In this document: one piece after another, positions 1 through 19,182 of the stretch
Numbering within the stretch: position 1 is the first letter of the stretch
How the letters are laid out: each line of letters opens with the position of its first letter
NCBI GenBank assembly: GCA_051652765.1
Contig: JBOFUV010000133.1
Coordinates: forward strand, 1-64,000
DNA from: Microcoleaceae cyanobacterium
Lineage (GTDB): Bacteria > Cyanobacteriota > Cyanobacteriia > Cyanobacteriales > Microcoleaceae
DNA: 64,000 bases
Reading direction: 5' to 3'
The notes under the pieces: model-generated
Told to the model about the DNA's origin: nothing
The model's input: the letters and a program-made list of their open reading frames with translations, nothing else
Databases searched by the model: none
Translations under genes and position numbers: made by a program

Positions 1-2505
1 GCATCCTTACCGCGTTACCGAATGCAGCCTGAAGGTGAACCGCTCCCCCAACAGCCGTTTTCTCAGATATTGAAATCTCCTCAAGGTCTGTTTCTGATTA
101 CTGAGGATCAGTTAGGTGTGGCTCCTTATGTAGCTACAGCCTTACAACAAGCGGGTGCAACTCCCGTCATTCTCAGCCCAGATATCCTGCTGAATCCTAA
201 ACGCCTTGCCCACGAAGTTGATCAACTGCGTGAAACTTGGGGGCCTGTTACTGGAATTGTCCATCTGGCCGCCCTAGCTCCCCTCTCCCTGCCGAACTCG
301 TTCCCGCAATGGCGAACCTACACCACAATTCAAGCCAAGAGTTTGTTTCAGCTCTTGCATTTATGCAGTCAGGAGCGGAATTCTGCCAAGACTCTCAGTT
401 ATGTTTTGTCTGCCTCTTTGCTAGGGGGGTATTTGGGTCGCCCCAGTGATTCTAGCTCCCCGAATCACAGTCAAGATCTGGCCCAGGGAGGGCTAGCAAC
501 GGGAGGAGCAGCGGTAGGCTTACTCAAAACCTTGAGCTTGGAGCAACCAGAGGTTCAGGTCAAGGCCGTTGACTTTGATCAAACCCTGTCTGGGGAAGCC
601 ATGGCCCAGCATATTGTGCAAGAGTTGTTCTTACCTGGAGGGCGGATTGAGGTGGGTTACCCTCAGGGCGATCGCACCGTTTTCAGAACTGTGTCTGCAC
701 CGATTACACCTGAACCGATTACGCCTGAGACGACTGTAACCCTCTCTCCAGAACCGGACTGGGTGGTTCTAGTCACAGGGGGCGCAAAAGGAATTACCGC
801 AGAAACGGTCTTAACTCTGGCAACCGTTGGACTCACCCTGGTGATTGTAGGCCGTTCCGCCTGCCCGGAGGAGGACGCGATTCAAACCCAGGGAATTGAA
901 GATATTGCCGCGTTAAGGCGAGTTTTGTTAGACCGGGCCAAGGCTCAAGGGGTGTTGCCAACTCCGGTACAAGTCGAGGGACAGATCAAACAGATTTTGG
1001 GCGATCGCGCCATCCGGGCCAACCTCAAGCGCTTTCAACAGGCCGGAGCAACGGTGGAATACCTTCCGGGAGATGTCAAAAATCCAATTGAGTTTCAGCA
1101 CTTAGTGAACGATATTTACAGCCGTTATGGTCGGCTGGATGCGGTGATTCATGGCGCAGGCATCATTGAAGATAAGCTGATTCAGGATAAAACCTTGGAT
1201 TCTTTTGAGCGAGTCTTCGATACCAAAGTAGACAGTACCTTTATCCTGAGTCAATGTCTGCGCCCAGAGTCTTTGAAACTGCTCGTTTTGTTTAGTTCTG
1301 TGGCCGGACGTTATGGTAACAAAGGTCAAAGTGACTACGCAGCCGCCAACGAAGTAGTTAATCGCTTGGCATGGCAACTGGATCAACGTTGGCCTCAAAC
1401 CCGAGTGGTAGCGATCAATTGGGGCCCTTGGGATACCACTGGCATGGCCTCTGAAGACGTAAAACGTCAATTCCGGGAACAGGGAGTGATTCCGATTCCG
1501 TTGGACTCAGGCTGTGAATTCTTCTTGGAAGAACTGCTATGGGGGCAGAAAGGGGACGTGGAAATGATCGCGGGAATGGGCCCTTGGGATGCCCATGAAC
1601 AAAAAATGGCTCACTGTCCTAGCGTTGCCACCCTTGCCTTCCTCGGCAAAACCGCTCCCCAACTTCAGCCGGATGGAACAGTTACCCTGGATCACACCTT
1701 TTCCCTGGGGCACGATCCCTACTTAGCGGATCACTGCTTGGACGGACAGCCTGTTGTTCCTGCTGCTGTGGCGTTGGAATGGTTGGCGGAATTTATCCAG
1801 GCCGCTTGGCCAGAGTGGGAATTGGCCCAGATCCAGAATTTGCGAGTGCTACGGGGCTTAGTGTTACCTCAGGCTGAGGGATGTTCGGTGCGGCTCCAAG
1901 CCAAGGCTTCGACCCATGCCGATGCAGAGAGCTTAACGGTCACCGCTGAAATCCTTGACCCAGTACGGCGTACTCTTTACTACCGGGCAACGGCCCGATT
2001 ACAGCCCCAACTGCATCCCTCACCTCCCTTGCTCGACCTGAACCCAATTGGTGGACAGTCTCTCCCGCCAGAGGAAGCATATCGCAACTATTTATTTCAT
2101 GGCAAACGCTTTCAGTTGATCACGGCGATCGCAGGCTGTGAGGCCGAAGGGATAGATGCCCAAGTCCAGCCCAGTTATCCGACGACCTGGTTAACCGATC
2201 AAACCCCTGGAGGTTACTGGCTATTCGATCCCGGCATGATTGACACGGCCCCCCAATTGGCAATTATTTGGGCGCGAATGCAGCGTGATACCACTGTGTT
2301 GCCTGCTCGGTTTGGCTGTGTCACCCGTTACGCGGCTTCCCGTTCCCCTCAACCGCTCCAGGTGGCACTTCGAGTCACCCAGGCGAATGAGTACAGTCTC
2401 AGCTACGATGCTTTGTTCTTTGATGCTCATGGAAATATCCATTTCCAACTTCAGGATATGGAAGGCACTTGCAACTCCCAACTCAACCGTTTAGCGCAGG
2501 TTTAG
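1..2505 (+). CDS. Type I PKS/PUFA-synthase-like protein, C-terminal KR + DH domains (5' truncated by window edge)
   Basis: Frame is open from base 1 (ASLPRYRMQ...). KR motifs VLVTGGAKGITAE, HGAGIIEDK and FSSVAGRYGNKGQSDYAAAN. DH motifs DHCLDGQPVVP and DPGMIDTAPQ. Confidence 0.92.
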   Translation, partial: ASLPRYRMQPEGEPLPQQPFSQILKSPQGLFLITEDQLGVAPYVATALQQAGATPVILSPDILLNPKRLAHEVDQLRETWGPVTGIVHLAALAPLSLPNSFPQWRTYTTIQAKSLFQLLHLCSQERNSAKTLSYVLSASLLGGYLGRPSDSSSPNHSQDLAQGGLATGGAAVGLLKTLSLEQPEVQVKAVDFDQTLSGEAMAQHIVQELFLPGGRIEVGYPQGDRTVFRTVSAPITPEPITPETTVTLSPEPDWVVLVTGGAKGITAETVLTLATVGLTLVIVGRSACPEEDAIQTQGIEDIAALRRVLLDRAKAQGVLPTPVQVEGQIKQILGDRAIRANLKRFQQAGATVEYLPGDVKNPIEFQHLVNDIYSRYGRLDAVIHGAGIIEDKLIQDKTLDSFERVFDTKVDSTFILSQCLRPESLKLLVLFSSVAGRYGNKGQSDYAAANEVVNRLAWQLDQRWPQTRVVAINWGPWDTTGMASEDVKRQFREQGVIPIPLDSGCEFFLEELLWGQKGDVEMIAGMGPWDAHEQKMAHCPSVATLAFLGKTAPQLQPDGTVTLDHTFSLGHDPYLADHCLDGQPVVPAAVALEWLAEFIQAAWPEWELAQIQNLRVLRGLVLPQAEGCSVRLQAKASTHADAESLTVTAEILDPVRRTLYYRATARLQPQLHPSPPLLDLNPIGGQSLPPEEAYRNYLFHGKRFQLITAIAGCEAEGIDAQVQPSYPTTWLTDQTPGGYWLFDPGMIDTAPQLAIIWARMQRDTTVLPARFGCVTRYAASRSPQPLQVALRVTQANEYSLSYDALFFDAHGNIHFQLQDMEGTCNSQLNRLAQV
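668..675. repeat. HIP1 octamer GCGATCGC (one example of many across the window)
   Basis: Recurs in core genes and in the PKS cluster, often as ggcgatcgcc. Confidence 0.95.
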
Positions 2506-2512
2506 TGAAATC

Positions 2513-5500
2513 ATGACAAATCCTCAACTGAAATCCACGGATATTGCGATTATTGGCATGTCGGCTCTTTTTCCTGGAGCCCCGGACTTAAAGACCTACT
2601 GGCAGAACATTGTCAATGGTACCAGTGCCATTCGAGAGGCCCCAGAAGACTGGCTTGGCCCTTATTTTGACCCTGACTCTACTGAAAATGACCGGATTTA
2701 CAACCGCAAAGGAGGGTTTATCGGGGATTTAGCAGAATTCAATCCTTTGGAGTTTGGCATCATGCCAAACTCCGTGGATGGAGGTGAGCCTGTTCATTTT
2801 CTGGCCCTGAAATTAGCACGAGCGGCCCTAGCCGATGCAGGATATTTGGATCGACCGTTCAATCGGGACAAAACCGGAGTGATTCTGGGACGGGGCACCT
2901 ATGTGAACCGAGCCTATAACTCTCTGATGCAGCATGGATTGGTGATTGATCAAACCCTGGACTTAATTCGTCAGCTTTTGCCTCAGTTAACCAAGTCTAC
3001 CGTCCAGCAAATTCGTCAGAACCTGAAGCAAAGCTTGCCACCTTTTACCGCAGAGATGGCTCCAGGCTTGTCTCCCAATGTGTTAACGGGTCGGATCGCC
3101 AACCGATTTGACCTCAAAGGGCCAAATTATATTGTTGATGCTGCCTGTGCCTCAACCTTAATTGCGGTAGAGCTGGCCATTACAGAATTGCAGAGTGGTC
3201 GCTGTGACCTGGTATTAACGGGAGGCACACAAGCCTCAACTCCACCGCAAATTCACATGATTTTCTGCCAACTGGGGGCCCTGTCGCGGTCTGATATCAA
3301 GCCATTTGCCCAGGGATCGGTAGGAACGCTGTTGTCAGAAGGGCTAGGACTGTTAGTTCTGAAGCGGTTGGCCGATGCCGAACGGGATGGCGATCGCATC
3401 TATGCTGTGATTAAAGGGGTGGGTACCTCCAGCGACGGAAAAGCTTTGGGATTGTTAGCTCCTCGACCTGAAGGAGAGGTCTTAGCTCTGCAACGAGCCT
3501 ACGCGAATAGTGGAGTTGACCCCCAGACAATCAGTTTAATTGAAGCCCACGGCACGGGAATTCCGCTGGGCGATCGCACAGAAATTCAATCCTTAACCCA
3601 AGTCTTTGGGGCTCGACAGCATTTCCCTCGCTGTGCCTTGGGTTCTGTGAAATCAATGATTGGCCATTGCTTGCCTGCGGCTGGGGCTGCCAGTTTAATC
3701 AAAATGGCCCTTGCTCTCTATCACAAAGTTCTGCCCCCAACTTTGTGTGATCAGGTTAATCCAGATTTGGAAATTGAACAAACTCCCTTTTATATCAACA
3801 CGGAAACACGACCCTGGATTCAAGGGGATGGGCTGCGGCGGGCTGGAGTCAATTCCTTTGGGTTTGGTGGGGTAAATGGTCATGCCGTTTTAGAAGAATA
3901 TCAGCCGTCAACCCGTTCTTTATCCTCTACTGCGCTCCACACGCAATGGCCGACGGAATTGGTGGTGTTAACTGCAGATGATCCAAGCACTCTGATTGTT
4001 AAAATTCAACAGTTGCACCAGCAGATAGAGACCCAACTCGTCGAGGCAGCATCCCAGTTTTCCCTGGCTTCCCTTGCCTATATCCTGAACTCTCAACCCC
4101 TTCAAGGCCGAGAACGTCTGGCCATTGTGGCGGAGGATTTACCCGACTTACAGCAAAAATTAACTCAAACCTTGAGCAAATTGCGATCGCAACCCCAAAC
4201 CCTGCAAACTCGTAATGGGATTTACTATGCTGCTGGGGGAGATTTGGCTGAACCGGAGCGGTTGGCCTTGCTGTTTCCGGGAGAAGGATCGCAATATCCG
4301 AATATGCTGGCGGATTTGTGTTTGTATTTTCCAGTGGTGCGCTCCTGGTTTGACTTTCTGGATCAAACGTTTGGAGCCCAGCGAGAGATTCCCCCGAGCC
4401 ATTTCATTTTTCCCCCTCCCACTAGCTTAACTGCGGAAGAGCAGCGGATAGCTCAAGCTCAACTCTTCAATATGGACTTGGCTTCAGAAACGGTGTTTAC
4501 CGCTAATTTAGCCCTGTACGAACTTCTTAAGCAGTTGGGTCTAAAAGCAGCCGTCATGGTGGGGCATAGCACGGGAGAAAATTCTGCCTTGATTGCTTCA
4601 GGAACCGTGCGCTTGAGTAGCCGCGAACAACTAGGAAAGAATATGCGTCACCTCAACCGTATCTATCAGGGGTTAGTTGCGGAGGATCGAATTCCAAAAG
4701 GGGTGTTACTGAATGTGGGTGCGGTGGATCAGGAGGTTCTCCACAGAGTAATTGCTCAATTTCAAGGTCAGTTGCACTTAGCGATGAACAATTGTCGCAA
4801 CCAAGCAATTCTTTTTGGCGATGAGGCAGTGGTTGTTCAAGCCCAAGCCCAACTTCAGCAATTGGGGGGGATTTGCACACGGCTTCCGTTTGATCGAGCC
4901 TATCATACCTCTCGATTTGAACCAATCAGTACTGCATTCAAAGCCTTCTATGATCACCTAGACGTAGGCCCTGGGCAGACTTCCTTGTATAGCTGTGCAA
5001 CAGCGGATCAGTTCCCGACTGAGCCGGAAGCAATTCGGGAGTTGGCGGCGCAACAGTGGTCTCGCCAGGTTCGCTTTTGGGACACGATGGAGACGTGCTA
5101 CCAACGGGGGATTCGCACCTTTGTCGAAGTTGGGCCGAGTCGGAATCTCACTGGATTTGTTCGAGATGTTTTCCGCGATCGCAACCATCTTGCCCTCGCC
5201 AGTAATGTCCAACGTCAATCTGGCTTAACCCAATTGCACCATCTATTAGGCCATTTGTGGGTTCAGGGAAGTCCCCTCAACCTGGACTATCTCTACAGTG
5301 TGCGGGAATTGCAACCTGCTAACTTAGCAACCCCAATTGTTCCGCCAAAACCGAAGATGTTGCTGGATTTGAAGATGCCAATTCTTCGTCTAGATCCGGA
5401 GTTGGTTCAGGAGATTCAAGGGCAGTTGCAAAAGTTCCCATCGGTTCTTCCAGAAATAGGTCTTCCAGAAATAAGTCTTCCAAAAATAGGTCTTTCCGGA

Positions 5501-7576
5501 TCTGATCAGACCGACCCGCATGATGCTCCTGAACAGCCCTCGATAGTTCTTCAACACCCGGTAAGTGTGACTGAAGATACGGTGGAATGGGTAGTTGCTC
5601 CAGAGCAGGTGCAAGCTTCTAGCAGCAATTCAGAAATTGCCAGGGGCATCATAGAACCAGATAATTCCAGACCAATGGCTCCAGTTTTAATCCCGCCTCC
5701 GGTTCAGCTAGAACCTGTCGCTTCTACAATTCCGCTACCTCCTCAACTACCGTCTCAACAGCCTGAGTTTTCGCTGCTATGCTCTCATTTTGATTTGATG
5801 AAGACCTTTCTGGAGCATCAGCAACGGATTACAGCGGCAGTATTCTCCAACTCACCAGATGTTGCCACAACTCCTTGGCCATTTCTGGGTCAAGTGCAGG
5901 AATGCACAGCCTCACGGTTTTACAGTGAACGGGTCTTTGATTTGCAGTCTGATCGGTTTTTGCAAGACCATACCTTGGGTGGCCAACTCTCAAACTGGAA
6001 CCCGGAGATCTGTCCCTTGGCGGTGATTCCCTTCACGATCAGTTTGGAGATTCTGGCAGAAGCGGCGGTTTACTTAACGGCCTGTGCGTTTCGAGTGACT
6101 GCGATTGAGGCCGTGCGAGGGTATCGCTGGATTACGTTAGACCAAGGACAGGTGCGGCTTGGTATTGAAGCTGAGCTGCAGTCTGATCCCGCTGCTTCTA
6201 GTCCTCAGGTTCAGGTGAAGTTGTTCCAGCTTGAACCGGATCAGCAGGCAGACCCGATCCTGGTGTTTGAAGGGCGGGTAATTTTGGCGACTGACTATCC
6301 GCCGCCGCCTGCTCCCTCAATTGCACCACTTACTCATCTTCGGCCTTCCCGCTGGTTAGATGGGGAGTTGTACACTTCAGGAATGTTTCATGGCCCTAGT
6401 TTTCAGGGGGTGAAACACTTGTGCGGATGGAATGGTCAAGGAATTGAGGCAGAATTGAGGCAAATTCCCACTGATCCCTTTTTCCAATCTCTACCTCGGC
6501 CACAGTTTCAACTGGATGCGGGGTTACTGGATGCAGCGGGGCAGTTGGTGGCGTATTGGATTTCGGAACAGTCAAATATGGATTTCCATGCGTTTCCGTT
6601 TCGAGTCCAGGCTTTTCGGTTCTACGCCGACGTGTTGCCTGCTGAAGCAATCGTGGGCTGTCGGGGGCAGATTGGATTCGCACATGAACGCCAAGTCGAT
6701 GCTCAGTTAGAACTCCGGGATTCAACAGGAGCTATCATCACTCGAATTGAGGGATGGCAGGATGTGTTTTTTACGGTTCCTCAACGGTTTTGTGAGTGCC
6801 GAGTTTTTCCGCAGACGGCATTTCTGTCTCGCCCCTGGAAACCCTTGACTACCTTAACTGACAGGGTGATCAGTCGCCGAGTTGATCCCTTTCCTCAAGG
6901 GTTTTTACAGGACTCAGGCGGGTTATTACAGCGGGCGCTGGCCCATTTAGTATTAAGCGCTGAAGAACGGGATGTTTGGTACAGCTTGCCGGAAGGCAGC
7001 TCTCGCCGGTTAGATTGGTTGCTTGGCAGAATTGCTGCCAAGGATGGAATTCGTCAGTGGGCTCAGGAACAGTTTCAGTTGGCCCTAGCTCCAGTAGACA
7101 TTACGATTCTTTCCTCGGCAACAGGAAAGCCTCAGGTTTCCTGCCCAATGTTGCAAGCCTTTACATCCCTCCCTGATTTGTCCATCAGCCACAGTCAAGG
7201 TTGGGCCGTAGCAGCGATCGCCCCGGTGGGTCAGCAGATTGGAGTAGATGTCCAACCATTTCAGGGGGTCAAGGCTGACGATATTATCCCTATAGCCTTT
7301 TCAGGGGCAGAATGGCAACGCTTGCCAGATCTCACCGGTCAAGAGATTATCGGGCTGTGGTGTGCCAAAGAAGCAGCCAGTAAGGCAATGGGAGTGGGTC
7401 TTCATCAGCCCCACGATTGGCAGATTACCCACTATTCCAGGGAAACTAGTGAAGTGGCGCTGCGATATGGCGATCGCCAGTTGCTGATTCAAGTGGAGCT
7501 AACCCCAGAGGAGGCGATCGCCATCTGCCAAATTGTTCCTCAAGGAATTGGGATCTCATCACTAGAGATCAACTGA
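2513..7576 (+). CDS. Type I PKS: KS-AT-linker-DH-PPTase, no internal ACP seen
   Basis: KS DAACAS, EAHGTG, KSMIGH. AT GHSTG and RAYHT. DH FLQDHTLGG and LLDAAGQ. C-terminal Sfp-type PPTase motifs GRIAAK, SISHS, IGVDVQ, WCAKEAASKA. Confidence 0.92.
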   Translation: MTNPQLKSTDIAIIGMSALFPGAPDLKTYWQNIVNGTSAIREAPEDWLGPYFDPDSTENDRIYNRKGGFIGDLAEFNPLEFGIMPNSVDGGEPVHFLALKLARAALADAGYLDRPFNRDKTGVILGRGTYVNRAYNSLMQHGLVIDQTLDLIRQLLPQLTKSTVQQIRQNLKQSLPPFTAEMAPGLSPNVLTGRIANRFDLKGPNYIVDAACASTLIAVELAITELQSGRCDLVLTGGTQASTPPQIHMIFCQLGALSRSDIKPFAQGSVGTLLSEGLGLLVLKRLADAERDGDRIYAVIKGVGTSSDGKALGLLAPRPEGEVLALQRAYANSGVDPQTISLIEAHGTGIPLGDRTEIQSLTQVFGARQHFPRCALGSVKSMIGHCLPAAGAASLIKMALALYHKVLPPTLCDQVNPDLEIEQTPFYINTETRPWIQGDGLRRAGVNSFGFGGVNGHAVLEEYQPSTRSLSSTALHTQWPTELVVLTADDPSTLIVKIQQLHQQIETQLVEAASQFSLASLAYILNSQPLQGRERLAIVAEDLPDLQQKLTQTLSKLRSQPQTLQTRNGIYYAAGGDLAEPERLALLFPGEGSQYPNMLADLCLYFPVVRSWFDFLDQTFGAQREIPPSHFIFPPPTSLTAEEQRIAQAQLFNMDLASETVFTANLALYELLKQLGLKAAVMVGHSTGENSALIASGTVRLSSREQLGKNMRHLNRIYQGLVAEDRIPKGVLLNVGAVDQEVLHRVIAQFQGQLHLAMNNCRNQAILFGDEAVVVQAQAQLQQLGGICTRLPFDRAYHTSRFEPISTAFKAFYDHLDVGPGQTSLYSCATADQFPTEPEAIRELAAQQWSRQVRFWDTMETCYQRGIRTFVEVGPSRNLTGFVRDVFRDRNHLALASNVQRQSGLTQLHHLLGHLWVQGSPLNLDYLYSVRELQPANLATPIVPPKPKMLLDLKMPILRLDPELVQEIQGQLQKFPSVLPEIGLPEISLPKIGLSGSDQTDPHDAPEQPSIVLQHPVSVTEDTVEWVVAPEQVQASSSNSEIARGIIEPDNSRPMAPVLIPPPVQLEPVASTIPLPPQLPSQQPEFSLLCSHFDLMKTFLEHQQRITAAVFSNSPDVATTPWPFLGQVQECTASRFYSERVFDLQSDRFLQDHTLGGQLSNWNPEICPLAVIPFTISLEILAEAAVYLTACAFRVTAIEAVRGYRWITLDQGQVRLGIEAELQSDPAASSPQVQVKLFQLEPDQQADPILVFEGRVILATDYPPPPAPSIAPLTHLRPSRWLDGELYTSGMFHGPSFQGVKHLCGWNGQGIEAELRQIPTDPFFQSLPRPQFQLDAGLLDAAGQLVAYWISEQSNMDFHAFPFRVQAFRFYADVLPAEAIVGCRGQIGFAHERQVDAQLELRDSTGAIITRIEGWQDVFFTVPQRFCECRVFPQTAFLSRPWKPLTTLTDRVISRRVDPFPQGFLQDSGGLLQRALAHLVLSAEERDVWYSLPEGSSRRLDWLLGRIAAKDGIRQWAQEQFQLALAPVDITILSSATGKPQVSCPMLQAFTSLPDLSISHSQGWAVAAIAPVGQQIGVDVQPFQGVKADDIIPIAFSGAEWQRLPDLTGQEIIGLWCAKEAASKAMGVGLHQPHDWQITHYSRETSEVALRYGDRQLLIQVELTPEEAIAICQIVPQGIGISSLEIN

Positions 7577-7645: not shown

Positions 7646-7990
7646 ATGAACACATCGATTCAGTCTGCTCTAATTAGTGTCAGTCGGCAGCTCCGTAAGT
7701 TAGAAATTCAGGTTGCTGTTGTCAATCTTATTCGTTCTCTGTTGCAAGAGTGGCGGATGGAATTTAACGATATTAACCCGAAAAGTCGATTGACATCCGA
7801 TTTGAATTTTGAATCCATTGAGATTATTAATTTGGTTGTTGCTTTGGAGAAAAAATATCGCAAGACCTTAGATTACTCCCGACTCCTTATGCAGGATGGT
7901 CACTATGTTGAAGACATTAGCATTGAGCAGCTTGCCAATTTTGTTGGGGAAAGTTTTCCTGAAGATCAAGATGAATGTTCTACGAGTTGA
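7646..7990 (+). CDS. Stand-alone acyl carrier protein
   Basis: SRLTSDLNFESIEIINLVVALEKKY matches the ACP helix II pattern with the Ser attachment site (ES in place of DS); directly follows the PKS. Confidence 0.8.
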   Translation: MNTSIQSALISVSRQLRKLEIQVAVVNLIRSLLQEWRMEFNDINPKSRLTSDLNFESIEIINLVVALEKKYRKTLDYSRLLMQDGHYVEDISIEQLANFVGESFPEDQDECSTS

Positions 7991-8274
7991 TGAGTCATTT
8001 ATCTAGGTAAGTTTTGCCTGTAAACTTACCCGTGAATTTATCCGTAAATGTATCAACAAATTTGTCAGCAAAGTTGTCGGTAAAGGTGTTGATACGTTTG
8101 TTCGTCGAATAATATGGCAATCCTTTATTAATTATAAAAACCTGAAAAGAGGTTTGGGGATTTTGTTCTAAGAAAGAGCAACTTCTCTTTACCCCTTTTC
8201 CAAAAATTATTCCTGATTCCTATAGCTTGACTTTGCATAATGATATGAAGTGAGCCCTAATAATCCTTTGAGAA

Positions 8275-8307
8275 TGTTGGGTCTCGCTAGCTCGATACCA
8301 ACCTACA
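8275..8307. repeat. REP-like small dispersed repeat copy (family A)
   Basis: Reverse complement tgtaggttggtatcgagctagcgagacccaaca resembles tgtagggtaagtcgagcttgtgaaacccaaca at 30289-30320. Confidence 0.55.
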
Positions 8308-8351
8308 CAGCCTACATTTTTAAGCGACATGCACCAGTGGGGGGACTCAAA

Positions 8352-11204
8352 ATGTACCAAACTGCTCAAAATCGGCTGCGGCAAGACTTGACAATTGTTA
8401 AAAGTGCAATTCTTAAAAATGCTAGATATCATTACCTCATCAAACTACCGGAGTCGGAAGATTTTTTTGAGTTAGGAGAAGAAGACTATTATCTCTGCTG
8501 GTTAATGAATGGAGAATTGACTGACGCGGAAATTTGTAATCGATTTTGCGAAAGGTTTGGGCGAGTGATTACGACCCGTAACTTTAAATCATTTTCCCAA
8601 AGAATTGATGCGTTAGGATTGTTAGAGCCTTATCATCATGCATTTTCAGTCTTGGAAGAACCCGAGCCAAATTTATTACTAGATCCTCCTCATAATATCT
8701 CTGAAATTGAGCCTGAAATTGAGCCTGAAATTGAATTAGAGTTTACTCATAGTTATGACATCCCTGAATCCAAAAGTTACAATCCAATCAAGGTTAATCC
8801 TCCATATCACTGGGCGTTATTCAATCCCAATTTTGGGCTAAGAGGTCTAGCTACTTTATGTCATCCTTTGCGTCACTTGACTTACGGGATTATTCCCTTG
8901 TTAGGATTGGCAATTCTGACTATCCTCAATAATCAGCCTCTTTTTTGGCAAGACTTAACAACTGAAATTACCCCTATTCCTTTACTCAGTAAGCTCGGGT
9001 TTAACCTGCTCAGCATTAACATCTTAGGAAAGGTCGCTTATGGCGTAGTCTACACATATTATGGGGGCCGTAGTTCAACAGCAGGAATCCAGTTCATATT
9101 TGGATTTTTTCCCTTATTTTATCTCCAAACCTCGAATTTATGGCAATTCCGCCGCCAGCAGCTCCTTTGGATTTTTGCGACTCCACTACTATTCCGAATA
9201 TTTGCTTTTTCAGGGACAACTTTACTATGGTTTTGGTTGCGATTGACTCAACCTCAACTGTCCATCTTTTTTCTCATGTTATCTCAGATTTCACTCCTTA
9301 GTTTTGCCCTTCACGTTAACCCTATTTGGAAATCTCATGGCCATCTTTGGTTATCAACTTATTTGCGATCGCCGCAATTGTTAGAGCAGGCTCATCTGCT
9401 CATTAATCTGAGGATAAAGCGTCGTCCAATGCCTTTAAATTTGTCTCCTCATAAAATATTGGCGCTGCAAATTTATGGTGTAGTTGTGATCTTGTCTTGG
9501 ATCTTACTGCTGATCGCAATAGTTTTGGGAGGCATGATACTCACAGATTACTATCAAGGAATTGGATTTTTGATCTCAGTCACAGCAGTTATTCTTACAA
9601 TTAAATGGTGGCTCACAATGAATGGAAAATCTTCGTCTGGTGCTCATTCTAATTCAAAATCTAATTCAAGAATGATTCGAGAATTAAATTCAAGAATGAT
9701 TCAAGAGTTGTCAACTGTTGCACATCCTGCTAATGCTAATGGCTCAATTGCTTTAAATCATCCTCCCCGAATCGTCACCTTTTTAAGCACAACTCTTAAA
9801 ATTGGAGCTGTGATTGGGGTTGGAATTTTACTATGTTTACCTTATCGCTACCGTCCTGGCGGTGGAATTGAATTATTGACTCATCAGCAAAAAGAAATTC
9901 AGGTGGATATTTCTGGCCGAATTGCACAAGTTAAATTTGATGGTGGGGATGGGGCATGGATTAATGCAGGAACTACTATTGCTGAAATTGAACCGTCTAG
10001 CCAGGTTCATTATCAAACACCAACTGAAAATGATCTCTTGATCAAACGAGAACAAATTAATCGCCAAAGAGCTGAAATTGAGAAAGTCAAAGCGAATCTT
10101 AATCGTCTATTGTCTACACCTCGCCAGGAAGAAGTTGATGTTTCTCAGCGAAAAATAGAAGTAGAACAGCAAGAGTTAGCCTCAGTTCAAAGTCAGCTTG
10201 CTGTAGCTCGGGAAGAACTCAATTTAGCCCAGCGGCAAGTTGCAGTTCAAACGGAGGAATTGGCAGCAGTTCAAAGTCGAGTGGAGACCGTTCAAGAAGA
10301 GGTTAAAGTTGCCCAAAAAGATTTAGAAGCTGCCCAGATTAGATTAGAATTTCAAAGCCGAGAGGCCAATCGTTTACAGGTTTTATATCAAGAAGGAGCA
10401 ATTCCCTTGCAGGATCTTGAAGATGCTCAACGGCTAACGGAACTTGCTCAAGCAGAAGTAGATCGAGAAAAAAGTAATATTCAAAGTAAGCTCAAGCAAG
10501 TTGATGAACGGCAGCATGAAGTCCAGGTGCAACGGAATAATATTGAAGAAGAAAAACAAAATATTTTGGTTAAACAAAAGCAAGTTGAAGAACGTCAAAA
10601 TAACGTTCAGGCTCAACAAAAAAATATAGAAGTTAAACGAGCTGATTTGAGTCTAATTATGAGTGGCTCTCATCCAGATGAAATTGCTGCGGCTCGTAAA
10701 GATGTCGAAGCTGCTCAACTGCAATTGAAGCAATTAGAACAAGATATCACCTACACTCAAACTCAACTGGAGCGCCGAACTTTAGTGATGCCCTTTGATG
10801 GTCGTTTAACTACGCCTTATTTAACTCAAAAAGTGGGGAGTTACTTAGACCAAGGTCAAGTATTTGCGATCGCAGAAGATGATCGAAAAATTCGTGGAGA
10901 AATCGAAATTCCAGAGTCTGACATTGGAGAATTTTCTGTGGGTGCTCCCGTTGAGATTAAGTTATCGTCTTATCCAAACCAGGTGATTACGGGAGAGATA
11001 GTTTCTATTGAACCAAACGCAACAGAAAGTTCTAGCGGGCAGTTTATTAAAGCGATTGTTGAAATCCCCAACACTGAACAGATGCTCAAGCCAGGAATGA
11101 CAGGTCATGCCAAAATTTCAGGTGGAGTTAAACCAGTTATGTTCTCTTTTACTCGTCCTTTAGTGCGCTTCTTTCAAATTGAAGTGTGGTCTTGGATTCC
11201 TTAA
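8352..11204 (+). CDS. Fusion protein: PqqD/RRE-like N-terminus + degenerate M50-like multi-TM domain + HlyD-family membrane fusion protein
   Basis: ATG at 8352 follows ggggga and is preferred to GTG 8250. N-terminal RLRQDL...FFELGEEDYYL...GLLE pattern, several hydrophobic helices, long Q/E/K coiled coil, lipoyl-like halves (ISGRIAQV; MPFDGRL) and C-terminal LKPGMTGHAKI. Confidence 0.8.
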   Translation: MYQTAQNRLRQDLTIVKSAILKNARYHYLIKLPESEDFFELGEEDYYLCWLMNGELTDAEICNRFCERFGRVITTRNFKSFSQRIDALGLLEPYHHAFSVLEEPEPNLLLDPPHNISEIEPEIEPEIELEFTHSYDIPESKSYNPIKVNPPYHWALFNPNFGLRGLATLCHPLRHLTYGIIPLLGLAILTILNNQPLFWQDLTTEITPIPLLSKLGFNLLSINILGKVAYGVVYTYYGGRSSTAGIQFIFGFFPLFYLQTSNLWQFRRQQLLWIFATPLLFRIFAFSGTTLLWFWLRLTQPQLSIFFLMLSQISLLSFALHVNPIWKSHGHLWLSTYLRSPQLLEQAHLLINLRIKRRPMPLNLSPHKILALQIYGVVVILSWILLLIAIVLGGMILTDYYQGIGFLISVTAVILTIKWWLTMNGKSSSGAHSNSKSNSRMIRELNSRMIQELSTVAHPANANGSIALNHPPRIVTFLSTTLKIGAVIGVGILLCLPYRYRPGGGIELLTHQQKEIQVDISGRIAQVKFDGGDGAWINAGTTIAEIEPSSQVHYQTPTENDLLIKREQINRQRAEIEKVKANLNRLLSTPRQEEVDVSQRKIEVEQQELASVQSQLAVAREELNLAQRQVAVQTEELAAVQSRVETVQEEVKVAQKDLEAAQIRLEFQSREANRLQVLYQEGAIPLQDLEDAQRLTELAQAEVDREKSNIQSKLKQVDERQHEVQVQRNNIEEEKQNILVKQKQVEERQNNVQAQQKNIEVKRADLSLIMSGSHPDEIAAARKDVEAAQLQLKQLEQDITYTQTQLERRTLVMPFDGRLTTPYLTQKVGSYLDQGQVFAIAEDDRKIRGEIEIPESDIGEFSVGAPVEIKLSSYPNQVITGEIVSIEPNATESSSGQFIKAIVEIPNTEQMLKPGMTGHAKISGGVKPVMFSFTRPLVRFFQIEVWSWIP

Positions 11205-11251: not shown

Positions 11252-11617
11252 ATGCTCGATTTTCAATGTTCAACAATGCCCTTAGAATTTGAAGAACATT
11301 TAAGGCTGAGAAACTATCAAGAAACTTGGATTCAAGCCCTATTTGAAGAGACAAAGTTTGAGCTAGAACAGTTATCTAGGATTCCAGAGATGACTCTCAT
11401 ACCAGAAGAGCCGTGGGAAATTCCTCAGGGTTCATTTCTAGAATTTTTAGATAGCATGTCCCAAGAAACTATAGAATCTCAAAAAGAGCGTAAGACGCTG
11501 GCTGAATTACAAGAACGTTATCAAAAGTTACTCTATCATCGTGTTTGGTTGAATCGCTTATTACAGCAAGTTCATCGTGATGTAAAAGCCGCAACACTTG
11601 TGACCAGTAGTGCATGA
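11252..11617 (+). CDS. Hypothetical helical/coiled-coil protein
   Basis: 121-aa ORF co-oriented within the cluster, ggaga upstream; no family recognised. Confidence 0.55.
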   Translation: MLDFQCSTMPLEFEEHLRLRNYQETWIQALFEETKFELEQLSRIPEMTLIPEEPWEIPQGSFLEFLDSMSQETIESQKERKTLAELQERYQKLLYHRVWLNRLLQQVHRDVKAATLVTSSA

Positions 11618-11680: not shown

Positions 11681-12823
11681 ATGCGTCTTTACCCAAGGCC
11701 CCGACCGCAAATCAATTATCTTTTCCAACTATTTCTGTTTTCAGCATTTCTACTCTTCCCAACGTTAACTGCTTGCTCGATCACTTTCTCTAACCTCATG
11801 TCTCATCCATTTCTCTCAACACCTGTACGTTCTATGAGTTCAACATTAGTGTCTCCTCAGTTAAACTACCAACCGACACTGGGGCCCTATGGAGTCAAGA
11901 CGGTTGATCATCTGGTTTTGCCCGGTCGCAGCGGTCGTACCCTACCCCTGAGACTCTACTACCCTGAAGGATCAGGAAAATTTCCGGTGATTGTGTTCTC
12001 CCATGGCTTGGGAGCTTCAAAAGCAGGATATTCTCTTTTGAGTCAATTCTGGGCTAGTTATGGCTATGTTTGTATTCATCCAACCCATGCCGATGCCTTA
12101 GTTCTCCAAGGCAAGGCCCCAACACCGGAGAATTTGCAGGCTCTCGTGCGAACCATGCTCCAGGATGTCGAAGGCTGGCAACAGCGGGTGCAAGATGTGG
12201 TGTCCATTCTGGATGCCTTGGAGGAGCTAGAACACCAACTGCCGCAATTTCAGGGTCAATTTGATCTGCAAAACATTGGGGTCGGTGGTCACTCCTATGG
12301 GGCTTACACAACTCAATTGTTAGGGGGAGCTAGGATTGACTTGCCGGGTGAGCAACCGGGCAAAAGCTTTGCTGATCCTCGGATACAGGCTACTTTGCTC
12401 TTGTCTCCCCAAGGATCGGGGCAACAGGGTTTGACGGCGACCTCCTGGGAACAGCAGAAATTGCCCATGATGGTCATGACCGGGTCTCGGGATCAAGGCG
12501 CTCAAGGACAGGGCCCAGACTGGAAACAGGAAGCATTCAAGCTTTCCCCGCCGGGAGATAAATATCTGGTGTGGATCGAAGGGGCACACCATTTTTCCTT
12601 TAGTGCGCCCCTGTCAGAACCCTCCCGTAGGGGCAACCTGGGACGAGCCCCCAGGGAGTTAGAGACTGCCCCCCAACAGCAGGCGATCGCAGCCTATATT
12701 CAAATCTCCAGTTTGGCCTTTTGGGATACTTATTTAAAGCACAATCCAGACTCTAAAGCCTACCTTCAGAGCGATGCGTTAGAGAAGTACAGTCATTCTG
12801 CTGTTTCCATCTCGACAAAGTAA
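11681..12823 (+). CDS. Alpha/beta hydrolase (chlorophyllase/PAF-acetylhydrolase-like), probable lipoprotein
   Basis: FSHGLG oxyanion loop, GGHSYG nucleophile elbow, TGSRD, GAHHFSF; signal peptide ending in lipobox LTAC. Confidence 0.85.
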   Translation: MRLYPRPRPQINYLFQLFLFSAFLLFPTLTACSITFSNLMSHPFLSTPVRSMSSTLVSPQLNYQPTLGPYGVKTVDHLVLPGRSGRTLPLRLYYPEGSGKFPVIVFSHGLGASKAGYSLLSQFWASYGYVCIHPTHADALVLQGKAPTPENLQALVRTMLQDVEGWQQRVQDVVSILDALEELEHQLPQFQGQFDLQNIGVGGHSYGAYTTQLLGGARIDLPGEQPGKSFADPRIQATLLLSPQGSGQQGLTATSWEQQKLPMMVMTGSRDQGAQGQGPDWKQEAFKLSPPGDKYLVWIEGAHHFSFSAPLSEPSRRGNLGRAPRELETAPQQQAIAAYIQISSLAFWDTYLKHNPDSKAYLQSDALEKYSHSAVSISTK

Positions 12824-12841: not shown

Positions 12842-14338
12842 GTGTCAAACCGATTGATTAAACCCCTCGTAAAGATGCTGACCCAACCTGGACTCCACCG
12901 TGCCAATTTTCGCAAAATTTGTATCAATGGGTTTGGAGATGGGAACAATGCCTATGCCCACTCCATGGCCTGGTTCAAAGATCATTTGTATGTCGGGACA
13001 ACTCGGGCCAACCTTTGCCTGCTGCGCCATTCCATGAAAAAAATCACCATCGATACCTGGCCCGTGGAATGCCCTTACCCAGTTTACTCTTCAGAGTTTG
13101 AGCAGATCCAAGCCCGCGCCGAAATCTGGCGCTATAGTCTAGTGTTGGACAGTTGGGAACGGGTCTTTCAAGCTCCAATGGTGTTTGGCAATACGGGGGA
13201 AGAGATGAGTCGAGATCTTGGGTATCGCGGCATGGTCGTCTTCCAGGGAAAATCCGATCCGGAACCGGCCCTCTATATTAGCACCTGGTCAAGGTCTCGC
13301 GGAGATGGCCCTTTAATTCTGCGGTCTGAAGACGGCAAAACTTTTGATACGGTCTCTAAACCTGGATTAGTCGGTCTTCCAGTCACAAGCTTCCGAACCT
13401 TAGTTCCGTTTAAGGGACGCTTGTTTACCGCACCCAGTGGTGCAGCTAAAGGCAATCCCAACACGGCGGGGGTGACGATGATTTACGAAAGTGATGATCC
13501 AGCCCAGGGCCAGTGGCGACCAATCAACGAACCCAACTTCGGTGACCCTGACAACTCGACTGTCTTTGAAATGAAGGGGTTTGGGGATTATCTCTATGCA
13601 GGCACCTTTAACATTCAGGGATTTCAAATTTGGCGAACTCGGGCCGAAGGTTCCCTGCCCTATCATTGGGAACGGGTGATGGATCGAGGGGGCGATCGCG
13701 GCTGCCTCAATCAAATCGCCACCAGCATGATGGTGTTTAACGATGCCCTCTACGTGGGCAGCGGCATTCAAAATGGCGGCTATGATCGCTTGAATCAGAT
13801 TGGGCCAGCCGGAGTCGAAATTCTGCGGATTCAGGCCGACGGGAGTTGGGATGTGATCATGGGGAACATCCGCCCCAATGGAAAACGTCCAATCAGTGGT
13901 TATCCGCCTGGATTTGGGAATTTGTGTAACGGCTATCTATGGCGGATGGGCGTTCATGAGGGTTGGTTGTATGCCGCCACCATGGACTGGAGTATTTTTC
14001 TGCGCTATGTCAATCTAGCGAACAAGCCCCCTCGAACAATGCGGCTGTTGCAACGGGTAGGTTTAGAAACGATTATGCACAATCAAGCCGGATTTGAGTT
14101 GTGGCGTACAGCCGATGGAGAAAATTGGGTTCCTGTAGATTGTCGAGGGTTTGGGAATCCCTACAACTATGGGGTTCGCAACATCATTTCTACCCCCCAT
14201 GGAGTGTTTTTAGGAACCACCAATCCCTTCGGCCCCAAGGTTGCTGTTCCGCAGGGAGAAGCTTGGCACTATGTTGATAATCCTCAAGGGGGATTGGAGG
14301 TTTGGTTGGGATCAACGAACGTTAACCCAGAACGTTAA
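12842..14338 (+). CDS. Putative beta-propeller protein of unknown function
   Basis: About seven repeats of the form GFG..N.Y...M..F...LY.GT; start is GTG 12842 or ATG 12875. Confidence 0.75.
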   Translation: MSNRLIKPLVKMLTQPGLHRANFRKICINGFGDGNNAYAHSMAWFKDHLYVGTTRANLCLLRHSMKKITIDTWPVECPYPVYSSEFEQIQARAEIWRYSLVLDSWERVFQAPMVFGNTGEEMSRDLGYRGMVVFQGKSDPEPALYISTWSRSRGDGPLILRSEDGKTFDTVSKPGLVGLPVTSFRTLVPFKGRLFTAPSGAAKGNPNTAGVTMIYESDDPAQGQWRPINEPNFGDPDNSTVFEMKGFGDYLYAGTFNIQGFQIWRTRAEGSLPYHWERVMDRGGDRGCLNQIATSMMVFNDALYVGSGIQNGGYDRLNQIGPAGVEILRIQADGSWDVIMGNIRPNGKRPISGYPPGFGNLCNGYLWRMGVHEGWLYAATMDWSIFLRYVNLANKPPRTMRLLQRVGLETIMHNQAGFELWRTADGENWVPVDCRGFGNPYNYGVRNIISTPHGVFLGTTNPFGPKVAVPQGEAWHYVDNPQGGLEVWLGSTNVNPER

Positions 14339-14372
14339 CCCCTCGAACGTTAAATCTAGCAGAGGAACTGAG

Positions 14373-15284
14373 ATGAACACTGACTTTGCTCAACCCCTAT
14401 TTATCCTGGCTTCTCCGCGTTCGTTTACCTCTGTGCTGTGTGGCATGTTGGGCCAGCATCCCCAAGCCTACGGGGTAGCAGAATTGAGCATCTTTGCTTC
14501 CGAAACCTTGCAAGAGTTTACGGATCGAATGCAGGGCTTATTTCAATACAATATGCATGGTTTACTTCGAGTGGTGATGCAACTTTATGCTGGGGAACAA
14601 ACGTTAGCTTCTCTTGAAATGGCTCGCCGTTGGGTTGCAACTCGCGGCGATCGCACTACGGGCGAAGTCTATCAAGAACTCTGCCAAAAAGTTGCCTCCA
14701 GACGCATTATTGATAAGAGCCCAATCTATTCGACAAAACGGGAAATCATGAACCGAATTTATCGAAATTTTCCCGATGCTTATTATTTGCATTTGGTTCG
14801 TCATCCCAGAACTCAAGGGCAATCTATGATGAATTTTGCTGACGGGAATCTGACGATTTTTGGAAATTCTGTGGACTATTCCACACATCCCCCAACGGTT
14901 GATCCGCAGTATTGGTGGTATACCATGCAATGCAATATTTTAGATTTTCTAGATACAGTTCCCTCAGAACAACAAATGCGCTTAAAAGGGGAAGATCTCT
15001 TGAGTGATCCAAAATCTTACTTTGAAAAAATTTGTGGTTGGTTGAATTTGGACTGGAATGATGAAGCGTTTGCAGCCATGTTAAATCCTCAGGACTCTCC
15101 CTATGCCTGTTTTGGCCCCTATGGTTCCCATGCTGGAAATGACCCAAACTTTATGCAGTCCGCTAAATTTAAGCAACGAGAGATTCCATCCAGTCAATTA
15201 GCAGGAGATTTACCCTGGCGTTCTGATGGGAAAGGTTTCATTCCAGATGTGATTCAACTCGCACAAACCTTGGGATATGAGTGA
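14373..15284 (+). CDS. PAPS-dependent sulfotransferase (resembles CurM/OLS ST domain)
   Basis: ATG after agagga. 5'-PSB loop LFILASPRSFTS, IIDKSP, 3'-PB HLVRHPR, GEDLL, DPNF, LGYE end. Confidence 0.9.
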   Translation: MNTDFAQPLFILASPRSFTSVLCGMLGQHPQAYGVAELSIFASETLQEFTDRMQGLFQYNMHGLLRVVMQLYAGEQTLASLEMARRWVATRGDRTTGEVYQELCQKVASRRIIDKSPIYSTKREIMNRIYRNFPDAYYLHLVRHPRTQGQSMMNFADGNLTIFGNSVDYSTHPPTVDPQYWWYTMQCNILDFLDTVPSEQQMRLKGEDLLSDPKSYFEKICGWLNLDWNDEAFAAMLNPQDSPYACFGPYGSHAGNDPNFMQSAKFKQREIPSSQLAGDLPWRSDGKGFIPDVIQLAQTLGYE

Positions 15285-15364
15285 TTGTTTGACAAGCTTT
15301 GACCTGAAACAATTATCCACAGTAATCATTCAAAGTAATCATTCAATTAGAGGGACATTGAATC

Positions 15365-16501
15365 ATGAAAAAGCACTATAGAATTCACATCTACCGTAAT
15401 ATTTCTAGTCTGTTATGCCTGATCCTAACTCCGGCATTGGCTCTGGCTTGTACTGCCAACGTTGTCAGTCATGAGTCTTCAGGTTTATCAAGGTCAACTT
15501 CCCTCCCAGCTTCCTCCAAGGTTGCCCTCAGTGCTCAAGATTGCACAACGATGATTCCCCCCATTCCAAGCGGCTATGGCTCTTTTGGCCCCTATACAGC
15601 CACGCAAACAACATTTGAGAGTCCCCTCTGGAAACTCAATCAAGTTCATGTTTATTTTCCCCAAGAAGCCACTGCTCCAGTTCCCGTGGTCTTTTTTGCC
15701 CATGCCTATGGAGCCATTTATCCTAAGTTTTATGGTGCCCTGATTCAACATATTGTCAGCCAGGGATATGCCGTGGTCTTTTCTCCCTATCAAGGACGCG
15801 GTGCTGATCACAGCACTCGTTATCAAATGTTGTGGGCTGGGTTTGAAGCGGCGGTTCAAAAATACCCAGATCGTTTAGACCTGAATCGAGTGGGGTTTAT
15901 GGGCCATTCCTATGGGGGAGGCGCAGTCCCAGCAATGGCCTATCGGGCCTTAGTTGAACGGGGGTGGGGAACCCAGGGGTCATTTTTGTTCATTATGGCT
16001 CCCTACTACTCTTTTGAAATTCAACCAGAACAGCTTCAGCGCCTCCCGGCTCAAACCAAACTGTTGATGCAGGTCTATGAAGAAGAGCAGATTAATGATC
16101 ATCGGATTGCGATCGCCCTGTTTAATCAGTTCAACCTCGCGGCTTCAGAGAAAGACTATGTTGTGGTTCGTTCGGATCAGAATGCAGACTGCACGTTAAT
16201 AGCCAATCACGAAACACCTGCCAGTTCTGGCTTGTGGACTACTCTTGAAGTCAACGGCCTAGATTACTATGGGGTCTATCGGCTGTTTGACGCATTGGCT
16301 GACTATACGTTCCAGGGTAGTCCAGGCGGAAAAGCCGTTGCTCTGGGCGACGGGAGCGATCAACAAACCTACATGGGAACATGGCCAAATGGGGTTGAAG
16401 TGAAGCGACTCATTGTTAATCCTACACCGCAACCCTTGCGAGAATCGGGTTCTTATCGATATCCCCAAACGAATCGCCCAGGAACGTTTACCGGAGAATA
16501 A
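15365..16501 (+). CDS. Alpha/beta hydrolase, probably exported/lipid-anchored
   Basis: FFAHAYG, GFMGHSYGGG, candidate catalytic His in ANHETP; basic N-terminus and hydrophobic stretch ending ALAC. Confidence 0.85.
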   Translation: MKKHYRIHIYRNISSLLCLILTPALALACTANVVSHESSGLSRSTSLPASSKVALSAQDCTTMIPPIPSGYGSFGPYTATQTTFESPLWKLNQVHVYFPQEATAPVPVVFFAHAYGAIYPKFYGALIQHIVSQGYAVVFSPYQGRGADHSTRYQMLWAGFEAAVQKYPDRLDLNRVGFMGHSYGGGAVPAMAYRALVERGWGTQGSFLFIMAPYYSFEIQPEQLQRLPAQTKLLMQVYEEEQINDHRIAIALFNQFNLAASEKDYVVVRSDQNADCTLIANHETPASSGLWTTLEVNGLDYYGVYRLFDALADYTFQGSPGGKAVALGDGSDQQTYMGTWPNGVEVKRLIVNPTPQPLRESGSYRYPQTNRPGTFTGE

Positions 16502-16523: not shown

Positions 16524-17441
16524 ATGAACTTCAAACCCCAAGTTAAACGGTTAGAAACGACTAATGCTGAACGAATCCGGCTCAGTTATGCCCTCTCAAA
16601 AGTGAGGCAGTTTGATCAGGCATTGAGTGAGCTGAACATCGTCTTGGATCACAATCCTCGTTCAGTCTATGCTCATCTCGCCATTGGCAATATTTGTTAT
16701 CTGCAAAGACGATATGGTGAAGCCTTTCATCACTTTCAAACGCTGACTCACTTGAATCCTCTGATGAGTGAAGGATACTTAAAGCTGGGGCAAGTTTGTT
16801 TACGGTTGGAGTGTTTAGAAGATGCCCTGGAGTATTTTGATACCGTCCTCAATTTGGATGCTCAATCCCCTCAAGCCTATCTCAGTCGCGGTCAAGTGAT
16901 GATGCGCCGAGAAGAATATGACTGCGCGATCGCCCATTTTCAGCAGGCTCTCAACTTAAATTCAGATGTGTTTTTGGCTCACTTATTACTGGGAGAGATT
17001 TATCGTAAGCAAAAGCATTTCCCTCAAGCTCTGAGAGAATTTCAAGCTGTTCTGGAGGTTCAACCCCAACTGATGATGGCCTACATTCGCTTGGGGCGAC
17101 TTTATCTCGATATGCAACATCCAGTTCAGGCAAAAGCTACTTTTGAGTATGCTTTACAGTTAAATCCTCACTCGATTTATGCCTATTTGGGTCTGGCTGA
17201 TGCGCTCATTCAATTAAATCAGTTAGAAGCGGCGGATGAATTACTGCAAAAACTACCGCACTTTAACAAACCTACCCTGAATCAACTCAACCGGAATCAA
17301 CCGAGTATCCCTGAGCCAACCTTCTTGGTTTCTCCTGACAGCTCTTGTCCTGAAGTTCCCTTTGATGAAACAGGCAATCTAGAGCAAATTTGGTACACAG
17401 AAGCTCTAGCTGGCCAAGAACGCTACTTGAACCTGGAATAA
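16524..17441 (+). CDS. Tetratricopeptide repeat protein
   Basis: Six to seven 34-aa repeats (AHLAIGNI...LNP, AYLSRGQV, AYIRLGRL, AYLGLADA). Confidence 0.9.
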   Translation: MNFKPQVKRLETTNAERIRLSYALSKVRQFDQALSELNIVLDHNPRSVYAHLAIGNICYLQRRYGEAFHHFQTLTHLNPLMSEGYLKLGQVCLRLECLEDALEYFDTVLNLDAQSPQAYLSRGQVMMRREEYDCAIAHFQQALNLNSDVFLAHLLLGEIYRKQKHFPQALREFQAVLEVQPQLMMAYIRLGRLYLDMQHPVQAKATFEYALQLNPHSIYAYLGLADALIQLNQLEAADELLQKLPHFNKPTLNQLNRNQPSIPEPTFLVSPDSSCPEVPFDETGNLEQIWYTEALAGQERYLNLE

Positions 17442-17548: not shown

Positions 17549-18046
17549 TTACGGCTTCGCTGAAGGGTCATCTAATCTAGCTGAATCTACCACTGTTGTA
17601 TCCTCATAAATCTCAGAATTATCCCCGTCCTGAATTGAGGGATTGGCTGTAGGAGTCTCAGAAGAGGCGGCTATCCCTGCAGCTTTTGATGGAGTTCCCA
17701 CACTTTCGTCCGAGGGTTCGGATTTTGATTCCGCTTGGATTCTAAGCTGTATTTTAGGGCCTGAGAGTGCAATGTGGATAATTTGTCCATCCTTGACCCT
17801 ACATTCCGTTACCAGATCCCCGTCAACATAGGTGCCATTAGTACCAAGATTAACGACTCTCCACCCCTCCCTGTCTAGCCTAAGCTCCAAATGATGGCGA
17901 GACACTACAGCACTGTAAAGCACAACGTGATTCTTTACCGAACGACCAATCCGAATCACGTCTTCCTGTTCAAACATCCAACTTCTGACCGGGGTTAACT
18001 GGTAAGGGTGGAGTAATATTAATGTAATCACATTGTTATCATGCAT
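17549..18046 (-). CDS. FHA domain protein
   Basis: IRIGRS, VVSRHH, GTNGTYV motifs. Confidence 0.88.
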   Translation of the reverse strand: MHDNNVITLILLHPYQLTPVRSWMFEQEDVIRIGRSVKNHVVLYSAVVSRHHLELRLDREGWRVVNLGTNGTYVDGDLVTECRVKDGQIIHIALSGPKIQLRIQAESKSEPSDESVGTPSKAAGIAASSETPTANPSIQDGDNSEIYEDTTVVDSARLDDPSAKP

Positions 18047-18225
18047 TCAAATTATTCTGGGAATCGAAGAACCCTAAATCTCCGTTATGGCAATCCCAAA
18101 GGATTTGTGAAAGGATTTGTGCAATGGGGTGAAGGGGCATTGTTCATGCTTGAAGACTTCGTCCCCAAATCCCACTTTGATGCTTGGGTCACTGATTTGG
18201 GATTGCTAGAGAACTGAAGCTTTGT

Positions 18226-18960: not shown

Positions 18961-19182
18961 CGGCTTCTCCTCTTCAGGCTGGAGCAAGTTCTAACGGTTA
19001 ATGGTTAGCTTGTTTAACGTTATTCTTTCTCTTCAATCCTATCTCAAGAATCATCTCGTATAAAATTACCTCTGGCTTAATCGAATGGGGAGTAAAAAGT
19101 AGGGAGCCGGGAAGCGGCATAAACTATGACAATTTGATTTGCAGCGTGTGTGGATCTGAACCTGATGAAGGATGCCTAACGG

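Follow-up and report, generated by a model that had tools for sequence, protein, structure and literature searches.

The gene at positions 14373..15284 (+ strand) of the window, the 64,000-nucleotide stretch of cyanobacterial DNA analysed here, encodes a stand-alone, presumably PAPS-dependent sulfotransferase (ST) which, with a probability that we put at roughly 0.55 from its sequence and gene context, sulfates a hydroxyl group on the lipid chain of its own gene cluster, probably paired with a beta-propeller protein and in a reaction distinct from the one catalysed by a second, ACP-fused ST. To our knowledge, structures have been solved for just two "activating" sulfotransferases that act on an ACP, each of which takes part in making a terminal alkene. 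Phylogeny places the ST in a large sister clade of these activating enzymes, marked by a PRS[F/Y]TS loop and found in a widespread lipid-synthase cluster for which no product is known. Its free-standing form of 303 aa should be easy to express.

Sequence and fold of the stand-alone sulfotransferase

The reading frame runs from ATG to TGA, with a purine-rich GAGGA just 5′ of the ATG at 14373, and homologues start at about the same position. As 1016 homologues of equal length were found, the gene is no artefact. The named homologues that match best are cyanobacterial; a search of genome contigs with the single protein gave one locus, and a plasmid search gave three distant PKS/NRPS matches. The protein belongs to the Pfam family Sulfotransfer_3 (PF13469; score 90.6 bits, curated cut-off 27). 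The motif series and the atypical PRSFTS loop listed in the preliminary description are all present and in order (FILASPRS, AEL, GL, VYQEL, DKSPIY, LVRHP, NILDFL, EDLLSDP, DPNF, LGYE); only the motif given there as EDL..P, which stands in its place, really reads EDLLSDP and is one residue longer. The claimed kinship to the ST domains of CurM and olefin synthase (OLS) was likewise borne out. Among 177,635 PDB sequences the only significant matches were 4gox (E 7.5e-26) and 4gbm (E 3e-21), the ST domains of OLS and CurM, respectively, and the next match had an E-value of 0.23. With an AlphaFold model of the ST (mean pLDDT 94.4, 51-row alignment), Foldseek returned the same two structures at the top (E 1e-16 and 3e-16; next 4e-8), and VIA-align ranked 4gox first (Z 29.1, rmsd 2.5, 262 residues aligned; next chain Z 17.2).

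The structural neighbours after OLS and CurM are tyrosylprotein sulfotransferases (Z about 17), which would fit an active enzyme with a non-lipid acceptor, such as a sugar or head group of the product, a small molecule or a protein. The fold does not fix the substrate, because NucO, whose closest relatives in fold are CurM and OLS, serves nucleoside sulfamylation in nucleocidin (accessible text of PMC10946740). A non-lipid acceptor is nevertheless unlikely in our view: a lipid synthase is linked to the ST in 16/16 cyanobacterial genomes, relatives of the ST are fused to alkylsulfatases and to a thioesterase (see below), and a scan of ten cluster genes in the window revealed no glycosyltransferase.

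PAPS site and catalytic residues

Residue numbers and roles are those reportedly assigned in CurM by McCarthy et al. 2012, and were carried over through the alignment with 4gbm, in which seven such positions share one constant offset. R16, S17, T19, S20, R143 and S151 of the ST align with 4gbm and 4gox and make up the signature of a PAPS-dependent P-loop sulfotransferase, namely the 5′-phosphosulfate loop and the Arg and Ser for the 3′-phosphate; Glu60, Lys133 and Asp266 of CurM are kept as E37, K115 and D257. Across 247 clade domains, nine of them gapped at N-terminal positions, Glu60 is conserved in 247, Arg39 in 230, Lys133 in 241, Arg161 in 241, Ser169 in 239 and Asp266 in 226.

The ST has F18 at the position of the loop Gly and S39 at that of His62, and so has neither the PRSG[ST]T loop nor the His. 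The Gly is kept in 27/27 PRSG domains, ACP-linked or other; in the 238 clade domains that cover the site the position is occupied by F (210), Y (23), L (4) or H (1) and never by Gly. Since its loss is clade-wide, the PRSFTS loop is a clade signature and not the decay of one copy. At the position of His62 the clade has N in 187, H in 34, Q in 9 and S in 8 domains, and PRSG-type domains have H in 19, E in 5, Q in 2 and N in 1.

Either of the two changes, the replaced Gly or the lost His62, may lower the activity of the enzyme. Both changes, the first a clade-wide exchange to an aromatic residue within the 5′-phosphosulfate loop, would suit a PAP(S)-binding subunit with weak or no catalysis of its own, in the service of the propeller or the ACP-fused enzyme, as would the canonical ST present in the same cluster in 7/16 genomes. 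We regard such a role as quite improbable, however, given that the catalytic Glu is found in 247/247 domains, that His62 varies in PRSG-type domains too, and that clade members are the only PAPS-type STs found in the clusters of 9/16 genomes; in addition, a cluster can hold several paralogues, each often with a propeller next to it, as would suit enzymes acting at different positions. From the conserved residues we infer that the ST is catalytically active with PAPS, and an APS kinase gene is present in the ST-bearing genome.

Phylogenetic position

A quick IQ-TREE analysis of 82 rows comprised 52 of the 248 clade domains, 22 of the 27 PRSG domains and, as outgroup, eight other STs of the same genome; OLS-sized genes stood in for the CurM and 4gox sequences. 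The ST groups among the 52 PRS[F/Y]TS rows (SH-aLRT 92) and apart from the eight outgroup STs, while the opposite side of the tree (SH-aLRT 99) holds OLS/PKS/NRPS-embedded STs, ACP-ST fusions including the one of this genome, and the fusion protein P0147. Read with a root that is unsure, because the outgroup is long-branched and does not form one clade, the tree puts the ST in a sister clade to the OLS/CurM STs and outside the OLS/PKS/NRPS-embedded clade. Identity of the ST to PRSG domains is 21-32%, and that of the ST part of the ACP-ST fusion to other PRSG domains 34-60%.

With the OLS (4gox) and CurM (4gbm) domains the ST has in common the fold, the motif order, the catalytic Glu, the Lys, the residues for the 5′ and 3′ phosphates, DPNF and a polyketide-synthase context. 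It differs from them in that it is free-standing and not part of an ACP-ST-TE module, has no matching thioesterase, has a propeller as probable partner, carries PRSFTS for PRSGST and Ser/Asn for His62, and falls in a separate clade. The ACP-ST fusion of its own cluster shares the catalytic core (31% identity over 234 aa), but has the canonical Gly and His as well as its own ACP. Two NRPS proteins, P0251 and P0263, were seen to contain two canonical ST domains apiece.

Where the phylum is known, clusters with the PRS[F/Y]TS clade are mostly from Pseudomonadota. No paper on the clade or its cluster was found in a literature search whose coverage excluded most subscription journals, and the clade is not described in the accessible text of PMC3098273, PMC3903477, PMC11730487, PMC10946740, PMC11143521, PMC4558948, PMC5577590 and PMC11980604.

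Organisation of the gene cluster

The window starts at a contig end, where contig C1 of the same genome (G000) overlaps by 139 identical bases, the first 60 of which were found at these two places only. Encoded on C1 are a synthase of 2193 aa with the domains ER-KS-AT-ACP-ACP and, divergent from it, the ACP-ST fusion (452 aa; C1 7503-8861, outside the window) with canonical PRSGST and PELH motifs. The join of C1 to the window is supported by the same divergent synthase/ACP-ST layout in G298, G304 and G690, and the cluster accordingly comprises two STs, the stand-alone one in the window, to which the preliminary description was confined, and the fusion on C1.

The genes in the window form a same-strand run (+). 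It begins with a PfaA-like KR-DH protein (22..2505), whose partner is the synthase on C1, a second synthase of the order KS-AT-DH-PPTase without an ACP of its own (2513..7576) and a discrete ACP (7646..7990), a paralogue 37% identical to the ACP of the fusion. The preliminary description was right in calling the latter an ACP and in assigning the ST to a PKS/ACP cluster: the protein has weak NCBIfam ACP matches below the cut-off and a conserved Ser motif common to 10 cluster ACPs. A membrane protein with a metalloprotease-like N-terminal part, in which no HExxH was seen, and a HlyD adaptor (8250..11204) is predicted to act in export; no ABC transporter or TolC gene was found among the cluster genes of this genome. 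It is followed by a 121-aa protein with no assigned function (11252..11617) that recurs in related clusters, a first alpha/beta hydrolase (11681..12823; GHSYG, lipoprotein-type signal LTAC) and a beta-propeller of no known family (12842..14338; 498 aa, start probably at ATG 12875) that ends 34 nt upstream of the ST. Downstream of the ST lie a second alpha/beta hydrolase (15365..16501; GHSYG, signal ALAC) and a TPR protein (16524..17441), the last gene of the run, which also recurs in related clusters. By eye and by hydropathy, both hydrolases start with a hydrophobic segment that has a lipobox-like Cys after it, and they are predicted to reside outside the cytoplasm. The 9-mer GAACGTTAA occurs three times at 14317-14353, at the end of the propeller gene and just 5′ of the ST start. 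Scans of the region gave 8 promoter sites (16.1 in shuffled sequences) and 8 terminator sites (10.4 in shuffles), and the GC content of the cluster (0.40-0.52) is not clearly distinct from that of the genome (0.46). For 12842-16500 no RNA entry was listed.

The cluster resembles the Pfa-like secondary lipid synthases that the accessible text of PMC3098273 describes, comprising PUFA, heterocyst glycolipid and alkylresorcinol synthases, in its PfaA-like KS-AT-ACP(n)-KR-DH order, PfaD-like ER, second KS-AT-DH synthase and PPTase. It differs from them in the N-terminally fused ER, the PPTase fused to the second synthase, the discrete ACP and the ST, propeller and HlyD tailoring genes, and the word "sulfo" is absent from that same text. 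Matches of the PfaA profile to the cluster synthase are below the cut-off.

Genes for FHA-domain proteins lie beyond both ends of the cluster (window 17549-18987; C1 12574-12990, the latter identified by eye). At the cluster edge, a 1030-aa FG-GAP repeat protein with RTX repeats is encoded at C1 8954-12046 and at L001:13276-16374. This gene was found in 2/17 genomes searched (this one and G690), for which reason we consider it accessory. It was rejected as a CylK-like alkylating enzyme, its PDB matches spanning the RTX repeats only; its product is a possible cargo of the HlyD protein. The cluster of the closest relative has a 1339-aa caspase-like/NB-ARC/TPR gene between the HlyD gene and the propeller (L001:3949-7968). 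G651 (contig C2) has its cluster in two parts separated by about 1 Mb (near 3.66 and 4.73 Mb), one with the synthases and the stand-alone ST, the other with the propeller and the ACP-ST fusion. A TauD neighbour was considered as an AtsK-type alkylsulfatase and set aside, AtsK and TauD structures not being named among its 8 PDB matches.

Distribution and alternation of partner genes

Clade members were detected in at least 4/401 genomes of a phylum sample and at least 14/401 of an order sample, with the best five candidates per genome scored and misses possible; none was found in 25 and 27 genomes of the same family. Partner genes were counted in all 16 genomes found with the ST (G690 included; the member in G304 is divergent) and in the control genome G591. 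The ER-KS synthase is present in 16/16 and absent from the control. A full-length ACP-ST fusion occurs in seven (G000, G298, G304, G411, G446, G651 and G690), and the remaining nine have, along with a free ACP, a full-length AlkP-family protein of 532 aa (L077:4140-5738 and its orthologues), in six of them directly 3′ of the free ACP. No genome has both and none has neither, two partial AlkP matches (about 130 aa, 28-29%) in G000 and G690 being excluded from this count, of which the one in G690, close to where its contig stops, might be a truncated gene; estimated completeness is 74% for G680 and 88% for G630. In 80 metagenome loci, which are partial, the AlkP gene was seen in 10 and the ACP-ST fusion in 2, with no locus holding both. 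Three changes between the two states are required on the ST tree (bootstrap range 2-4), and a topology that unites the fusion genomes in one clade was not rejected (p-AU 0.21); related genomes are not independent, so the pattern may reflect only one to three events.

Given the strict either/or pattern, the discrete ACP seems to be served by the ACP-fused ST or by the AlkP protein, and the stand-alone ST seems to pair with the propeller. The alternation would be explained if AlkP-fold proteins can add sulfate, for which the AlkP-superfamily sulfotransferases Agl30 and Agl31 of Halobacterium salinarum, acting on N-glycan sugars (accessible text of PMC11980604), offer a precedent to which the 532-aa protein is likened by superfamily. 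The alternation of ACP-ST with ACP plus AlkP thus leads straight to a prediction about an AlkP family without annotation, and one that can be tested.

These distributions do not sustain the earlier assignment of the ACP at 7646 as the specific partner of the ST. A free ACP of this kind was not found in 4/16 ST genomes, all among the seven with the fusion, although the query also missed the fused ACP of G304, which is the weakest case. Of 115 ST genes in the 80 metagenome loci, 32 adjoin another ST, 24 a propeller and none a free ACP, and among the matches listed for 39 long forms (clade proteins of at least 400 aa, from a search scoring the best 8000 candidates) no ACP was detected by the cluster-ACP profile or by Pfam, the latter run on 37. 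Nor does the stand-alone ST appear to be the CurM-like ACP enzyme of the cluster, as had been proposed: the ACP-ST didomain on C1, with its canonical motifs, its place inside the OLS/PKS-embedded clade and no thioesterase, is the better candidate for hydroxyacyl-ACP sulfation.

In the pathway that we favour, the two synthases would likely produce a long acyl chain that bears hydroxyl groups and hand it over to the discrete or fused ACP. There it would likely be modified by the fused ST or, in the other genomes, by the AlkP protein. The stand-alone ST, together with the propeller, would likely sulfate one more hydroxyl, its acceptor being presumably an aliphatic secondary alcohol, and with some preference we picture the chain as still carrier-bound at this step. 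Export of the product would proceed through the HlyD fusion.

The question of terminal alkene formation

The preliminary description had the ST sulfate a 3-hydroxyacyl chain in trans on the ACP at 7646, with a terminal alkene as one outcome once a thioesterase eliminates CO2 and sulfate. We find this very doubtful. The OLS and CurM domains are indeed its closest solved relatives, three genomes with both fusion and free ACP (G000, G298 and G690) hold a carrier without a known enzyme partner, and a cytosolic-type hydrolase of 294 aa with a weak likeness to the OLS thioesterase (E 5e-9) occurs in the clusters of 9/16 genomes. However, both CurM and OLS require a thioesterase after the ST (accessible text of PMC3903477 and PMC11730487), and the present ST is a free-standing ORF accompanied by hydrolases with lipoprotein-type signals only. 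The 294-aa hydrolase has no close match in this genome, and a search of the genome with the OLS thioesterase gave partial matches of 69-135 aa and no full-length enzyme. The accessible text of PMC3903477 gives the OLS architecture as FAAL-ACP-KS-AT-KR-ACP-ST-TE and describes OLS and FAAR/ADO as mutually exclusive; the domain order of the cluster differs from this, the ADO alkane gene is present, no OLS-sized ST frame was found in this genome, and the canonical ACP-ST is a different gene. Two other cluster-bearing genomes, G411 and G651, have an OLS-sized gene as well, and together with the ADO gene here this indicates that cluster and hydrocarbon route do not depend on each other. That the ST leads to a terminal alkene by decarboxylation of the CurM type is thus unlikely, as no cytosolic thioesterase was found in the cluster; a general cytosolic hydrolase encoded elsewhere is conceivable.

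The propeller, fused relatives and the fate of the sulfate

The propeller has no sequence match in Pfam, NCBIfam or the PDB. Its model (pLDDT 91.4) adopts a beta-propeller fold with generic structural matches only, Vgb (Z 27.5) and WD40 proteins (27.1) being tied, and neither sequence nor structure gave a specific match to an arylsulfotransferase, a Vgb-type lyase or CylK, so that these readings are not favoured. Eight Arg are invariant in 25 sequences. As its N-terminus is not hydrophobic, the protein is predicted to share a cytosolic location with the ST. The gene is present in 16/16 ST-bearing cyanobacterial genomes and not in the control G591, and 3/39 long forms are predicted ST-propeller fusions, in both orders, which could be gene-calling artefacts. 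From this context and these fusions we infer that the propeller is the partner of the ST.

Apart from these three, the long forms comprise 13 fusions to an alkylsulfatase, two tandem STs, nine that end in a different domain, up to about 500 aa long and with a weak resemblance to a propeller, one each with a thioesterase (P0165), an SDR and a methyltransferase alone, and nine unexplained. The alkylsulfatase fusions (P0123-P0129, P0131, P0133-P0136 and P0201) are SdsA1/Pisa1-like, P0124 matching SdsA1 (E 1e-34) and sec-alkylsulfatase (4e-33). They point to alkyl sulfate esters, and fall in other sub-clades and gene contexts than the ST of the window; the union of an enzyme that adds sulfate with one that removes it in a single polypeptide suggests stereo-inversion.

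As to the sulfate itself, we lean slightly towards its being kept in an exported sulfolipid-like product, and give its consumption as a leaving group by a partner enzyme a little under even odds. In the latter case the propeller would represent a new enzyme class. A more far-reaching and tentative idea, which we think doubtful, is that the ST and the propeller form a two-part "activate and displace" unit, in which the ST installs sulfate on a chain hydroxyl as leaving group for a substitution, ring closure or internal elimination by the propeller; where an inverting-type alkylsulfatase is fused in its stead, the pair would flip the stereocentre, and the AlkP-fold protein would be a non-homologous stand-in for the ACP-fused ST on carrier-bound chains. 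If true, sulfate activation would reach beyond terminal alkene formation.

Among metagenome loci of at least 10 kb a synthase was seen in 8/27 and a propeller in 18/27, which speaks against a strict link to the synthase within the DNA covered. In favour of a lipid acceptor, L070 has two clade STs immediately after a KS-AT-KR-ACP module and a thioesterase close by. Tandem arrays of clade STs with no synthase in view (L065-L068, L078 and L087) speak for the non-lipid acceptor considered above. In support of PAPS use, cysNC lies beside the ST in 1/80 loci. Arrays of 3-5 tandem STs occur in L065, L066 and L068, and a gene with a Pro-kumamolisin domain lies at the end of L065 and L067.
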